Of a stretch of 64,000 nt of DNA, positions 42,356-47,557 are shown in pieces. This DNA is from an uncultured Nitrososphaerales archaeon (GTDB lineage: Archaea > Thermoproteota > Nitrososphaeria > Nitrososphaerales > Nitrososphaeraceae). Each line of letters opens with the position of its first letter. Position 1 is the stretch's first letter. The DNA is taken from contig CAVOHZ010000010.1 in assembly GCA_963695855.1 (NCBI GenBank), positions 96,001-160,000 of the forward strand. Direction: 5' to 3'. The translations under genes were made by a program, and so were the position numbers. The notes beneath the pieces are model-generated. The model saw only the letters and a list, made by a program, of their open reading frames with translations, did no database searches and had not been told where the DNA came from.

Positions 42356-44449
42356 TTAAGGACCAAAGGAGTTGTTGTATACAATTCCAATTGATGGAAA
42401 TAAGCCGTTATTCATCAAACTGGTAATTTCTGCATTGGTGAGAGCCCTGTTCCAGACACCAACCTGATCCAGTTGACCTACAAAAGCGTCTTGTCCGAGA
42501 GACTGGGCATTTTCTGCTATCCTCAATGGCTGCGTTCCCATGTTGTCTGGATTGGTTGAAGTAGATAGTGTTCCTATCTGTGCACCATCAACAAATAGCC
42601 TAACAATATTATTTGCATTATCAAATGTTACCACTGCATGATGCCATTTGCCATCATTGTAAGTACTCGTGGATGTTATCCATTTGTTTGAACCGCCTGT
42701 AGTCTCAAAGCCTCCGACCAATCTCTCAGATGAGTCTAACCATATTCCATAGTTAAGGTTATTACCTGCACTTTCCGGTCCAAGACCTCCCTTGTTCACC
42801 TCCATCCCTTTTCCAACGAAGTTGGCTGTTGTTTTGAACCAAGTTGCAACAGTAAACGATGATAAATGAAGTTTCTGAGTATCAGGAACATCTATTCTAT
42901 CTGACCCTGTTGTGGTAAAGAATGGTTCGTAGTGATATCCAATAGCCTGCTGACAATCTGAATCTGCTGCATCTTTAGACCCATCACGGTCGTCATCCAG
43001 TCCATTATTGCATATCTCCTGTACTGCGGGACAATCCGTATCTTCTGCATCTATCTTTCCATCACCATCGTTATCTTTTGCGTCGTTACATACTTCTGGA
43101 TTAGAGGTAACAGAAGAATCAATATTTCTCACATATAGCAATCCTTCTGCAGAAGTGTCTTTATCACCAGTAAAGTATCCTCTACCTTGTCCATCACATA
43201 AGGTAGCTGGATTTGTTCCCAAATTCTTAATTGTATTTAATACAACGGAAGGAGACGTGCCTGGATGTGATGAAAGGTAAAGTGCAACAGATCCAGTTAC
43301 ATGTGGTGTAGCCATACTTGTTCCACTGAGAGTTGCATAGCTGGATTTATAGGTAGAATAGATATTTACACCTGGAGCTGCCATATCTACTACATTTCCA
43401 TAGTTACTAAATGATGCGAACGAATCATCTTTACCATAGTTTGAAGAACCTCCCAATCCACCGCATTTGCCATCTGTATCTACAATTGCTGAAACTGCAA
43501 TAACATTGGGATGATTTGCAGGTGAAAATGAAGAAGCATTTTTGCCGTCATTTCCTGCCGCAACCACAAATGTAACACCAGCGTTGACTGCTGCATTAAT
43601 AGCCGTATTCAATGCAGATGATGTACATTGACAACCCAGGCTCAGATTAACGACTTCGATTTGATCCGCGTTTGCAGTAACATAATCTATTGCTGAAATA
43701 AGAGATGATATTGAACCGGATCCGCTGTCATCTAGAACCTTCAAATTCCATAATCGTGCTCCAGGTGCTACCCCTACAACTCCAACAGTGTTATCCTTTG
43801 CAGCTGCAGTTCCAGCTACATGAGTTCCATGACCATTTCCATCGGTGGCAAGATATGAGGTTCCGCTGAAGTCCTTATTTATAAAAATATTCAAATCCTG
43901 GTGATTGTATATTCCAGTATCAAGTATTGCTATATCTACATTGACACTTCCAGACCCATCCCCAGATCTGGTGAAACTTTGATCTGCATCAATTCTGTTT
44001 ATACCCGTTGGTAATGTTTGAGCAAATGATTGAATCTTTTGATCCTGCTCTACGTACTTTACATTCGGATCTGCTCTTATTTTATCAAGCTCTGATTGGG
44101 TATTAATTTTAACGACTGATGCTTTAATGGAATTTTGAAAAATATTTAAAATATCAAGATCTTTAAAAGTGCTTTTTTCTATTTTTTTTACTAGCTGATT
44201 TATTAGGTAATTGGGGTTCTTGACATCGTCCTTGAAAACTACAATGTACTGGTTTGGAATTTTGGGGTCGCTAAACGTGTCTACTTGTTGTTTTACTATG
44301 TTGTCATCGTTTACAGCAGAAGGTAATGATAATAATGATGATGACGTTTGTCCATAGATTTCGTTCGAAATGGACGGAAGTGAAAAACAAGATGCAAAAT
44401 AAATCACCGATATCATAGAATATACTGCAAGAGTATTTACTTTTTTCAA
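42356..44449 (-). CDS. Secreted subtilisin-like S8 protease with I9 propeptide, two EVC/EIC-Asp repeats and a LamG domain
   Basis: ILDTG, GHGTHVAG, GTSMATPHV catalytic triad motifs. Confidence 0.92.
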   Translation of the reverse strand: MKKVNTLAVYSMISVIYFASCFSLPSISNEIYGQTSSSLLSLPSAVNDDNIVKQQVDTFSDPKIPNQYIVVFKDDVKNPNYLINQLVKKIEKSTFKDLDILNIFQNSIKASVVKINTQSELDKIRADPNVKYVEQDQKIQSFAQTLPTGINRIDADQSFTRSGDGSGSVNVDIAILDTGIYNHQDLNIFINKDFSGTSYLATDGNGHGTHVAGTAAAKDNTVGVVGVAPGARLWNLKVLDDSGSGSISSLISAIDYVTANADQIEVVNLSLGCQCTSSALNTAINAAVNAGVTFVVAAGNDGKNASSFSPANHPNVIAVSAIVDTDGKCGGLGGSSNYGKDDSFASFSNYGNVVDMAAPGVNIYSTYKSSYATLSGTSMATPHVTGSVALYLSSHPGTSPSVVLNTIKNLGTNPATLCDGQGRGYFTGDKDTSAEGLLYVRNIDSSVTSNPEVCNDAKDNDGDGKIDAEDTDCPAVQEICNNGLDDDRDGSKDAADSDCQQAIGYHYEPFFTTTGSDRIDVPDTQKLHLSSFTVATWFKTTANFVGKGMEVNKGGLGPESAGNNLNYGIWLDSSERLVGGFETTGGSNKWITSTSTYNDGKWHHAVVTFDNANNIVRLFVDGAQIGTLSTSTNPDNMGTQPLRIAENAQSLGQDAFVGQLDQVGVWNRALTNAEITSLMNNGLFPSIGIVYNNSFGP

Positions 44450-44725
44450 TATTTATTTGACTAAACTATAAATATATTAGCAATTCTCATATTTATTAGA
44501 AAAAATTTGTTATATTCTTTTTTTTATATAATATTATATAATTTAGTATTTTTTACTTTTAATATAACGTATATAGATGACTAGAACTCTTGAATGGTAT
44601 GTACGCTAGATTCATCATCACTAGAAAATATTATATTTAATATGTTTATTCTTCTGGCTCTGTAGGTGAAATGTTCGACAGAGCTAACATTCAAGAAGAA
44701 AGCCACTACCAATACTCTTGCAAAT

Positions 44726-45754
44726 ATGTATGCGGCATTAGATTTAGGACAGAAAAACATTCAGGCAGTATTGAAAAATAAAGATGGTAAGATTATAAAG
44801 GAAAATAAAATACAGCGTAATACCAAAACAATACTAGAATTTCTTGATAATAGTAACAAGAATCATAATAATATTGATATTGTAATGGAGTCTGGTTACA
44901 ACTATCAATATCTATATGATCTTTTACAAGATGAAGGTTATAATGTAAAAGTAGCACATCCACTAATGGTCAAGGCAATAGCATATGCTAAAGTCAAGAC
45001 AGATAAAGTAGATGCTAGAATATTAGCAGATCTACTAAGAATGGATATGATACCAGAATGTTATATACCTAATAAAGATATAAGAAATTTACGAGATCTA
45101 GTTAGACGCAGATACTATTTTGTCAGTATTCGAACAATGTTCAAAAACAAAGCACATGTTGAGATGAGTAAAAGATGGTTAGATGCTAATGTGACTAATA
45201 ATATAACAACAACAATGATTAAAAATGATCCATTTTCTAAAAAAGGAAAATGTCATTTACGTTCACTGGGAATACATGCATTAGATGATTGCCTTGATAC
45301 CATAGATTTTCTAGATAGAAAAATAAAAGAGTTGGATACAGAAATAAAGAAATTGGCAATAGAAGATAAATACTCTAAACATCTTATGACAATTCCAGGT
45401 ATATCTTACTATGCAGCTCTTCTAATATCAAGCGAGATAGCAGATATTAACAGGTTTCCAGACTATGAACATCTGTGTTCTTATGCTAGATTAGTACCTG
45501 GTACATATCAATCTGGAAATACATCATTCTCAAAAACAGACAAAAAACAAGGGAGCAAAATGCTAAACTGGATTATGGTACAGTGTACTCATACACATGT
45601 ACGTTATTGCCAATCATCGATAACAGTACATTACAACAAGATAAAGAATAGAAAGAGAAATAACAAAATTGCTATAATTGCAGCAGCAAGAAAATTAATG
45701 CGTGTGATATATGTTATGCTAAAGGAAGATCGTCCCTTTAGACTGGATGAATAA
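44726..45754 (+). CDS. IS110 DEDD recombinase/transposase
   Basis: YAALDLG, VMESG, KTDKVDA (D-E-D-D); TIPGI; PGTYQSG catalytic-Ser motif; AAARKL; likely start ATG 44726. Confidence 0.95.
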   Translation: MYAALDLGQKNIQAVLKNKDGKIIKENKIQRNTKTILEFLDNSNKNHNNIDIVMESGYNYQYLYDLLQDEGYNVKVAHPLMVKAIAYAKVKTDKVDARILADLLRMDMIPECYIPNKDIRNLRDLVRRRYYFVSIRTMFKNKAHVEMSKRWLDANVTNNITTTMIKNDPFSKKGKCHLRSLGIHALDDCLDTIDFLDRKIKELDTEIKKLAIEDKYSKHLMTIPGISYYAALLISSEIADINRFPDYEHLCSYARLVPGTYQSGNTSFSKTDKKQGSKMLNWIMVQCTHTHVRYCQSSITVHYNKIKNRKRNNKIAIIAAARKLMRVIYVMLKEDRPFRLDE

Positions 45755-45759
45755 TAATA

Positions 45760-45900
45760 TAGTATAGGACCTCTTGGTTTCTTGCATCGTCATATTGTTA
45801 TTATTATATGATAAGTATGATGGATGCCATCTGTAGGTTAGGTCTGGCTACTACTAGCGCAAAGCCACGGTGCACTATTGGTGCGTATGGGAGAATGCTA
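45760..45900 (+). ncRNA. Putative bridge/seek RNA with target-binding and donor-binding loops
   Basis: Two stem-internal loop-stem modules; loop segments TGGTTTCT and TCTGTAG match the target halves, ATGGGAG matches the element's right end; boundaries approximate. Confidence 0.8.
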
Positions 45901-45986
45901 TTATTCATCAGTTAATCATATTAGGAACGAGTATTATATGAACATGGGAGAAACCATCATAGCTAGCAACATTCTACAGTTAATTA

Positions 45987-46988
45987 TTGAACAAACAACA
46001 ATCAAAATATGTTAGATTAGCAGATCAACTATTACGTATTCTCAAACATTGCAGAATTCCATTATATTTGCATAGAAAGAGCAACCACATTTACACAGTA
46101 TGGCAACACATAGTACTTGTTACAATAAGACAGTATGAAGGTAAGAGTTATCGAATGTTTACAGACTGGCTTGTTGAAGCATACTATTTGAGATTGTTTT
46201 TACAACTATCCAAAATACCACATTATACAACCTTACAAAAATTCACTGATAGAATCAACATCATGAAGCTTGGAAAGATAATCTCATCATTTATCCTCTT
46301 TACAGGTACAAGACACATATTTGCTGGAATAGATGCAACTGGATTCAAAATAACATATGCGTCAGAATATTATACGAATAGAGCCAAATTGAGAAGGAAG
46401 AAATATGCTAAATTATCTATTGGTGCAGATGTTCTAAAACAGATAATCTGCAAGGTCAAGGTAAGACGAGCTCCAACAACAAGACATGACAATATGGATT
46501 TCAAACCTATTGTAACAAAAATATCAAAAATAAAACCATTATCGGTAGTTGTAGCGGATAAAGCATATGATAGCGAAGATAACCATGTACTTGTAAGAGA
46601 GAAACTACATGGATTCAGCATCATGCCTCCAAGATATGAACAAGTACCAGTATGGAAAACTCGTGGTAAATATAGAAAGGAGATGAAACGTGGATACAAC
46701 AAGATTCTATACAATCAAAGAAACAAGGATGAAACTATGGTATCTGTCATAAAAAGACTATTTGGGGAACATATCACATCCAAACTTGTGAGAATGCAAA
46801 ATAGAGAATTGACATTCAGATGTATAGCATACAATACTCACAGAATGGTGAAGTTGGTTGTTATAGTAATGGTTTCTACACAGCGATTCTTCTACAAATT
46901 CACATATATTCAGGAACTGATATTGATGTGCTTGAAGCAAACTCTCGTACTACGTCTTCAGTTTCTCTGTATGGTAAATGAAAGTTAA
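45987..46988 (+). CDS. IS5-family DDE transposase; reads through the right TIR into the flank
   Basis: PHYTTLQKF, GIDATG, VADKAYDS, YNQRNKDET..SVIKR. Confidence 0.9.
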   Translation: MNKQQSKYVRLADQLLRILKHCRIPLYLHRKSNHIYTVWQHIVLVTIRQYEGKSYRMFTDWLVEAYYLRLFLQLSKIPHYTTLQKFTDRINIMKLGKIISSFILFTGTRHIFAGIDATGFKITYASEYYTNRAKLRRKKYAKLSIGADVLKQIICKVKVRRAPTTRHDNMDFKPIVTKISKIKPLSVVVADKAYDSEDNHVLVREKLHGFSIMPPRYEQVPVWKTRGKYRKEMKRGYNKILYNQRNKDETMVSVIKRLFGEHITSKLVRMQNRELTFRCIAYNTHRMVKLVVIVMVSTQRFFYKFTYIQELILMCLKQTLVLRLQFLCMVNES

Positions 46989-47557
46989 AACTCATATAAT
47001 TAAGTAACTTGATCGTTGATTCTGGATATACGAACATTCCATCTTTTCGCCTTCATTCATATTTACAAGTTCTGTATTCCAGTTATCGATAACAAAAAAA
47101 TCAAGTAACATCTCTGCTGTCTTTATCAGAGATTCATTACCAGAGATTCATTATATTTCGTTCAGCTAGTCACATAATATACTAGAATACGTTAGTTAAA
47201 CGTATTAGGAATGACAATTTGCACGGAGCAAGAGATCCACTAGTTATAAAATTGATTGAAAATACTTTATAATAAGCACAAAGTATGGGAGATATATTTG
47301 TATAACAATCATCTAAAAAATTCATAAATTCAAAAGTTAGCATTTAAATTGCAAGAGACAAGATTATATGTCTATCATCATATAAAATGTACCTAATTAC
47401 TAAAATACTTGAAAACACAACATAATATAATATTGGTCCAAATTAAAAAATATTATATATTTTTGTAACTATTATTGGTTCTGAAAATTGAGATAGTAAA
47501 AATTCGTCTAATAATCCTTCCTATCTCTGATATACTTTAAATTAAAATAATAAGATA

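Follow-up and report, generated by a model that had tools for sequence, protein, structure and literature searches.

An insertion sequence at positions 44666-45950 of a 64,000-nt stretch of DNA from an uncultured Nitrososphaerales archaeon (the window, C10:96001-160000; contig CAVOHZ010000010.1 of assembly GCA_963695855.1) would, we propose, be directed to its target by an RNA encoded in its own 3' tail. The element sits inside the left inverted repeat of another insertion sequence, an IS5-family host, and is very probably an active, IS1111-like member of the IS110 family, in which a structured RNA of the seekRNA or bridge-RNA type, encoded by the 196-nt tail, directs the recombinase. What points to this in the sequences is a set of site-specific, oriented and independent insertions, covariation between guide and flank on two strands, compensatory base pairs, and a recombinase with intact catalytic residues. 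That the guide would act as RNA is suggested by family membership, and we infer the circular intermediate, the junction promoter and the fate of the interrupted IS5. The contigs C2, C3 and C10 named below all belong to this genome, which encodes archaeal AmoA, so the label of ammonia-oxidising archaeon used in a preliminary description of this DNA is reasonable; the relatives of the element also come from Nitrososphaerota.

The preliminary description had claimed an intact DEDD/Ser recombinase, and the protein bears this out. It matches DEDD_Tnp_IS110 (PF01548, E 4.9e-24) followed by Transposase_20 (PF02371, E 2.8e-18), and it scores 218 bits against the NCBIfam equivalog NF033542, "IS110 family RNA-guided transposase" (cut-off 140). 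Similarity to the IS621 protein is low (E about 4e-13); D6, E55, D93, D96 and S263-G264 align with D11, E60, D102, D105 and S241-G242 of IS621 (8wt6), residues reported to be catalytic by Hiraizumi et al. (PMC11208158). They are invariant in our five-sequence alignment except for G264, which is Ala in two of the five. The motif RLVPGTYQSG, represented in relatives by GLVPG..QS(A/G) or (G/R)LSPGVRQSG, fits the IS1111 pattern GL-P----S(T)G loosely. These features place 44666-45950 in the IS110 family with a recombinase of the DEDD/Ser type. The open frame covers 44666-45754 and opens at GTG 44666, but the start codon is probably ATG 44726 (MYAALDLG) because the NF033542 profile begins at the residue after it and relatives align from MYAALDL; the left end would therefore be a non-coding stretch of 60 nt, against 196 nt of non-coding sequence 3' of the gene, an arrangement characteristic of the IS1111 group. 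A subterminal inverted repeat of 6 bp (ATGTTC at 44671-44676, GAACAT at 45940-45945) lies 5 nt in from each tip and reads ATG(C)TCG and CGACAT in relatives. For the IS1111 group such repeats are given as 7-17 bp (PMC11208160).

Removal of the element had been said to restore the left repeat of the surrounding IS5, and it does. The neighbouring open frame encodes a DDE_Tnp_1 transposase (PF01609; NCBIfam IS5 family NF033579, 161 bits, cut-off 140), and the inverted repeats of this IS5 read GGCTCTGTAGAAACCAT and CGCTGTGTAGAAACCAT, the right one, ATGGTTTCTACACAGCG at 46869-46885, agreeing with the left at 15 of 17 positions (two mismatches). The element splits the left repeat 10 bp from its tip into GGCTCTGTAG and AAACCATC. 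Excision of 44666-45950 in silico gives GGCTCTGTAGAAACCATC, which stands uninterrupted in two other IS5 copies of the genome (C2:69024 and C3:379967), and a one-base variant of the uninterrupted left repeat, GGCCCTGTAG, is found at C10:1663241. Within GGCTCTGTAG, TCTGT (44659-44663) forms the left target half and AG (44664-44665) the core. This AG is the dinucleotide found at both junctions of the element, and there is no ordinary target duplication.

The 196-nt region 3' of the gene contains two hairpins with internal loops (Table 1). Direct reading of 44000-47400 found every string of the preliminary description, in loops, stems and core, where it had been placed, including GCCACGG at 45864-45870. 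In hairpin 1 the outer stem pairs 45767-45772 (GGACCT) with 45840-45845 (AGGTCT) and the inner stem 45784-45788 (GCATC) with 45823-45827 (GATGC); the GT that follows the left guide repeats the first two bases of the element's left end. In hairpin 2 the outer stem pairs 45855-45859 (TAGC(G)) with 45896-45900 ((T)GCTA), and the inner stem 45870-45875 with 45881-45886. Of the two target-matching segments, the one that complements the top strand (45775-45782) comes first, 5' of the one for the bottom strand (45830-45836), the order reported for IS1111 seekRNAs by Siddiquee et al. (PMC11187229).

We propose that a structured guide RNA made from this region aims the DEDD/Ser recombinase, and that the internal loop of hairpin 1 would read the target on both strands. 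In that loop the 3' strand, UCUGU-AG, would pair with the bottom strand of the left half-site and the AG core, and the 5' strand, UGGUUU-CU, with the top strand of the core and the right half-site, so that the two strands together would specify a 13-nt site, TCTGT-AG-AAACCA. The 3' strand of loop 2, AUGGG-AG, would read the element's own right end in the same way. Recombination at AG would then insert the circularised element in one orientation and without target duplication, splitting the IS5 repeat.

Table 1. Features of the element and of its IS5 host (positions are those of the window)
Feature	Position	Strand	Basis
IS110-family, IS1111-like element, 1285 bp (one AG counted)	44666-45950	+	one of three 100% identical genome copies
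Non-coding left end, 60 nt, begins GTGAAATGTTCG	44666-44725	+	sequence reading; relatives' left ends aligned
Heptamer AAGCCAC, first copy, in left end	44700-44706	+	31 of 31 complete elements
Recombinase gene, 342 aa from probable start ATG 44726	44726-45754	+	Pfam, NCBIfam, alignment to IS621 8wt6
Hairpin 1, putative target-binding loop	45767-45845	+	compensatory changes in both stems
Loop 1 5' strand, TGGTTTCT	45775-45782	+	complementary to + strand AG+AAACCA (core and right target half)
Loop 1 3' strand, TCTGTAG plus GT	45830-45838	+	TCTGTAG (45830-45836) identical to left target half and core
Hairpin 2, donor-type loop	45855-45900	+	folding and alignment
Heptamer AAGCCAC, second copy, loop 2 5' strand	45862-45868	+	conserved in relatives; lies where an IS621-type right-donor guide would be looked for
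Loop 2 3' strand, ATGGGAG	45887-45893	+	identical to the element's last 7 nt (45944-45950)
A/T box TATTATAT, ends 11 nt before right end, faces outward	45932-45939	+	sequence reading
8-bp direct repeat ATTCTTCT, target-site duplication of the IS5 host	44648-44655 (left copy), 46886-46893 (right copy)	.	sequence reading
Outer 10 bp of IS5 left inverted repeat, GGCTCTGTAG	44656-44665	+	uninterrupted repeats elsewhere in genome
Rest of IS5-family host, begins AAACCATC (inner left repeat)	45951-46885	+	IS5 copies compared
IS5-family transposase open frame, 333 aa, runs through right repeat	45987-46988	+	PF01609, NF033579

The preliminary description had named covariation between loops and targets in advance as the decisive check. 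Relatives were drawn from a scan of species genomes (15 loci) and a metagenome scan with the five-sequence alignment (79 loci, 95% to about 31% identity). The species-genome loci include six recombinases 56-63% identical to ours from Nitrososphaerota metagenome-assembled genomes, one of them a Candidatus Gagatemarchaeum, and one truncated copy (86%). Some match at E up to 0.001 was present in 13 of 24 same-genus genomes, mostly as short fragments in fragmented assemblies; these 24 genomes gave no new complete junction, the best match (G017, 86%) covering bases 1-781 at the edge of a contig. Of 95 sources (the window and 94 loci), 35 had both loop anchors in a form that we could parse, which gave 38 rows; the remaining sources were cut by contig ends or too distant. 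We excluded one spurious anchor (L066 at 1717), rows with short flanks, and rows that repeated both the guide and the flank of another.

Both strands of loop 1 follow the flanks across these relatives. The 3' strand reads N5-AG-GUU, and its N5 equals flank positions -7 to -3 in 21, 26, 25, 25 and 27 of 27 distinct junctions, with position -8 matched in one. The left total of 125 matches out of 162 was reached by none of 10,000 flank shuffles (mean 71.8, maximum 96). On the right, the guide (the reverse complement of the 5' strand, AG-N) equals flank positions +1 to +4 in 30, 28, 28 and 30 of 31 distinct junctions and +7 and +8 in 8 and 8; the total of 165 out of 248 was again reached by 0 of 10,000 shuffles (mean 134.5, maximum 152). 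The GU after the left guide is invariant and so uninformative as a "handshake", and the loop 2 bases after the core do not clearly follow the right flank in the rows inspected (L034 fits; L031 and L045 do not).

Several relatives have been retargeted and match their own loop on both sides of the junction, namely L034 (TTACTAG left, TAAATT right), L044 (TCTTGAG, AACGGC), L051 and L054 (TCGAAAG, AATCCC) and L033 (TTAACAG, AGCCTA). Loops also differ between elements with similar recombinases (L052 and L054, 92.9% aa; L032 and L033, 89.6%; L042 and L044, 85.4%), and those of L054, L033, L042 and L044 match their own flanks while that of L032 matches through +4. Because recombinases 85-93% identical carry different loops, most of which match their own flanks, the comparison indicates that insertion specificity follows the tail and not the protein.

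The donor side gives a similar picture at one end of the element. ATGGGAG had been proposed as a donor strand, and the loop 2 pentamer indeed equals the right-end pentamer in 33 of 36 rows (GGGAG in 20, AGGAG in 13); by inspection, loop and right end have switched together between GGGAG and AGGAG at least twice.

Relatives in other Nitrososphaerota genomes and metagenomes, AT-rich and GC-rich alike, have a homologous non-coding tail, and its structure can be compared among them. RNAalifold, run on an alignment of 32 distinct tails that was made with MAFFT and not fitted to structure, returns the two stems of hairpin 1 together with the inner stem of hairpin 2. For the four helices 80.6% of alignment cells pair, against 74.8% in shuffles and 18-55% with the partners slid, a comparison in which the true register is favoured since the structure came from the sequence of the window. 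In 38 cells both sides had changed, against 9.0 in shuffles, and the covariation score of 0.181 (0.077 in shuffles) was reached by 0 of 500. Compensatory changes occur in helices 1 and 2, which form the stems of hairpin 1, and in helix 4, the inner stem of hairpin 2, where one pair takes four types (U-A, G-C, A-U, C-G).

These comparisons bear on whether the conserved tail might act as DNA, for example as a single-stranded or extruded hairpin that pairs with the target. Sequence comparison cannot separate RNA from DNA pairing, and all of the covariation fits either. We nonetheless regard this as very improbable: the G-U pairs in the conserved stems, an invariant U-G at alignment columns 119/137 and a G-U at 107/148, suit RNA better, and the family members that have been tested purify with RNA and require it (PMC11187229; PMC11208160).

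Several observations weigh against an RNA-guided element as we describe it. The relatives are kin that were found through their recombinase, which means that the shuffle tests overstate independence, though flanks were de-duplicated. Right-guide positions +5 and +6 match in about half of the junctions (17 and 16 of 31), and some elements fit poorly (L045 and L018 in the right flank; L052 in the left guide, two positions off). Helix 3, the outer stem of hairpin 2, is an invariant GCG/UGC on which comparison is neutral, and hairpin 2 folded alone is hardly more stable than its shuffles (z -0.40). A search of the tail against Rfam, at E up to 10, matched no family. The fold anticipated in the preliminary description is obtained only in part: the minimum-energy fold of the whole 196-nt tail is no stabler than shuffles (z 0.05) and differs at hairpin 1, whereas hairpin 1 folded alone gives the expected stems (z -2.66; 2 of 200 shuffles as stable). 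The whole-tail fold was dropped as a test, single-sequence folding of an AT-rich 196-mer being uninformative, and sub-folds and comparison were used instead. Finally, a guide for the left end was not found, the longest bottom-strand match to the joined ends being 5 nt. Left ends vary among relatives (GTGAAA, GTGACA, GTGATA, GTGGGA), yet the 5' strand of loop 2 is an invariant AAGCCAC, and the preliminary description was right to be cautious on this point. The two-guide donor loop of IS621 is thus present by half, with a right-end guide and no left-end guide.

Some of these points would suit a recombinase protein that recognises the IS5 repeat alone, leaving the matches in the tail as incidental or as remnants of captured targets. 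The whole-tail fold is not unusually stable, and within the window taken alone 84 of 20,000 mononucleotide-shuffled tails contain both matches to the 18-nt site (at least 7 nt on the top strand and at least 8 nt on the bottom strand), which is rare yet possible. But chance matches and remnants would hardly change with the flanks on both loop strands over 27 and 31 distinct junctions, nor would they be confined to two particular strands of a loop whose stems are compensated, and a protein-borne specificity sits badly with closely similar recombinases using different sites that match their own loops. Bench-tested members of the family also need RNA (PMC11187229). We give recognition by protein alone very little credence, slightly less than pairing at the DNA level.

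The copies in the genome speak for repeated targeting of one site. Three full copies of the element, 100% identical over 1285 bp, all lie between GGCTCTGTAG and AAACCATC in one orientation relative to the IS5 gene. The two other host IS5 copies are 88.7% and 85.9% identical to that of the window, and the hosts have different flanks and a direct repeat of their own each. A composite IS5 that carried the insert and was moved as a unit by the IS5 transposase, which would reduce the three copies to one insertion with no demonstrated repeat preference, is the least credible alternative, for although those direct repeats mean that the IS5 copies did transpose at some time, such a unit would diverge together, and relatives 57-95% identical (aa) from other samples lie at the same point of IS5-type repeats with a guide that follows the repeat variants (L031, L056). 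Because the inserts are identical while their hosts have diverged, the three copies are three separate, recent insertions, and the claim that the element parasitises IS5 ends gains accordingly from three events at one point of the left repeat.

The distribution of sites across the genome is equally narrow. The 13-nt string TCTGTAGAAACCA is intact twice and each of the two junction strings occurs three times, giving five sites in 3.55 Mb, all of them IS5 left repeats, three of them occupied and two free. The genome also has 18 one-mismatch sites, among them all six IS5 right repeats (TGTGTAG or AATCCA variants), and none of these is occupied. With relatives included, the left junction of the element is preceded by AG in 53 of 55 distinct junctions.

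Beyond this genome the preference for IS5 ends is shared by some relatives. The string GGCYNNGYAG lies left of the element in nine distinct loci. L031 (70% aa) has the guide TCAGTAG at GGCTCAGTAG, and an IS5-type transposase gene (52-70% aa) comes after the element; L030 runs on into IS5 DNA. L056 faces the 3' end of a reversed IS5 gene, and therefore lies in the right repeat. All three copies of our genome are flanked by this IS5 repeat, but the GC-rich relatives lie beside ordinary genes: none of the 10 open frames right of 10 such elements matched a transposase family, six belonging to ordinary families (two weakly) and four having no match. Taken together, these junctions indicate that IS5-end targeting is a trait of a lineage, a derived retargeting within one sub-lineage. 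For the ecology of such elements this means one insertion sequence living inside the ends of another, a site that is multi-copy, mobile and harmless to the host.

The mechanism, the family, archaeal IS110 recombinases and the targeting of transposon repeats have all been reported before (PMC11187229, PMC11208160, 10.1101/2024.06.21.599552), including a catalogue of 662 archaeal IS110 recombinases (10.1101/2024.06.21.599552) and a mention of archaeal members in ISfinder (PMC11187229). A 2026 preprint describes 2,332 clusters of non-coding sequence beside IS110 recombinases from bacteria and archaea, over 144K species (10.64898/2026.10.21.760802), and may already contain the tail RNA of this element. 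In a literature search that left supplements outside its scope, we found nothing in print on this Nitrososphaerota IS110/IS1111 clade, nor on archaeal elements directed at IS5 ends. From its sequence, the element reads as a clear archaeal example of a mechanism known from bacteria, with an IS1111-like seekRNA/bridge-RNA layout.

The closest behavioural parallel is with IS4321 and IS5075, bacterial members of the IS1111 group of the IS110 family that have subterminal inverted repeats. These elements, to which a 2003 title by Partridge and Hall cited in PMC11208160 refers, reportedly insert one-way at a fixed point in a transposon's terminal inverted repeat. Compared in outline, they share with our element a single orientation and a constant position within a terminal repeat that belongs to a different transposable element, and perhaps also subterminal inverted repeats. 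They differ in that our host is an archaeon, that an IS5-family repeat is targeted here in place of the 38-bp repeats of the Tn21 family, and that the subterminal repeat is here only 6 bp (ATGTTC/GAACAT).

In its guide region the element resembles ISEc11, ISKpn4 and ISPa11, whose seekRNAs come from a long non-coding region 3' of the gene with the same strand order, and the natural retargeting of the close kin ISEc11 and ISXne4 parallels that of the relatives described here (PMC11187229). The putative guides of our element are short in comparison (5 nt and the core on the left, the core and 4-6 nt on the right). With the IS621 bridge RNA it has in common the target and donor internal loops, a two-base core within the guides, and the conserved DEDD and Ser-Gly residues (PMC11208160, PMC11208158). 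Unlike in IS621, the RNA region follows the gene and does not precede it, the strand order is reversed, the core is AG on the gene strand (CT on the other), and one of the two donor guides is missing, with the invariant heptamer in its place.

If this reading is correct, it makes a comparative case that RNA-type guiding of IS110/IS1111 recombinases operates in Nitrososphaerota, a phylum of soil ammonia oxidisers, with a target code that can be read and a natural series of retargeted relatives. To our knowledge ammonia-oxidising archaea lack genetic tools, and a native programmable recombinase with a short code would therefore be an obvious candidate tool for them.

The invariant heptamer may also bear on how the left end is recognised. 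Each of 31 complete elements has exactly two copies of AAGCCAC, one in loop 2 and the other 32-38 nt in from the left end, 10-19 nt before the start codon, and by eye no column of the aligned tails tracks the left-end variants. It is conceivable, though on balance we doubt it, that left-end recognition in this clade differs from anything described for IS621-type bridge RNAs and uses no guide beside the crossover. In that event the loop strand might pair with the bottom strand of the internal heptamer site, as a displaced donor guide, or the heptamer might serve the recombinase as a handle on the RNA, with a copy placed in the 5' untranslated region of the recombinase mRNA for self-regulation. 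On either account the clade would provide a compact recombinase (about 340 aa) that is native to Nitrososphaerota and whose target code is simple, at 5+2+4-6 nt. According to Siddiquee et al., IS1111 and IS110 types may not recognise their ends alike, and for ISEc11 a short seekRNA that carried only the target matches sufficed (PMC11187229). A small hairpin GGCU...AGCC containing the heptamer, suggested by the fold of L015, was rejected as it is broken without compensation in L034 and L056.

Close to the right end lies an A/T box (Table 1), a putative TATA-like box that may drive the recombinase gene once the ends join in a circle. Such boxes are found at a similar distance from the right end in GC-rich relatives (L015-L020, L035-L055), where they stand isolated (ATAAATAT or GTATTAAGG) about 22-26 nt before the right end, a placing that would match the spacing of an archaeal TATA box firing across the joined ends.

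Rearranged tails were also observed. At L019:3504-4033 there are three tandem tails in units of 176-177 nt (gene 3' end, guide region and right end), each starting at ACCTTCAGG, and the first unit is preceded, inside the 3' end of the gene, by GGAACAG, which equals the element's own left guide and core at 7 of 7 positions. Recombination of the right end with a target look-alike within the element itself would be expected to give this junction. The tandem tails thus look like self-targeting, or like an RNA module moving alone as reported for ISPpu9. In our genome, an orphan 3' fragment at C3:39413-39742 (bases 957-1285, 94% identical; L004) retains both loop 1 strands intact; its right end is mutated (CATTGGAG), and the sequence beyond it, AAACCTTCC, may be an IS5 repeat in decay. 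Both cases recall ISPpu9, an IS110-family element whose 3' small-RNA module, Ssr9, is also found by itself or in additional copies (Pares-Guillen et al. 2025, PMC12288879). Ssr9 is reported there as not required for transposition, whereas the tail studied here carries target-matching loops.

Other traces of the family are present in the genome. A degenerate relic at C2:54954-55301 (L005, L012, L109; 79-80% nucleotide identity over bases 1-66 and 226-485) is separated by about 260 bp from archaeal amoA (C2:55563-56111) and may be an old, inherited insertion, because matching pieces occur in two same-genus genomes (G019:C5 and G014:C61). At least eight further loci outside the window encode IS110-family recombinases 32-38% identical to that of the element, among them an inverted pair (C10:287645-288634 and C10:291009-290020) and several copies with frameshifts. 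An open frame of 697 aa on the minus strand (42356-44449), immediately left of the IS5, has a long C-terminal extension and the motifs GHGTHVAG and GTSMATPHV, which we take to be subtilisin-like; the IS5 landed about 200 bp upstream of the start of this frame.

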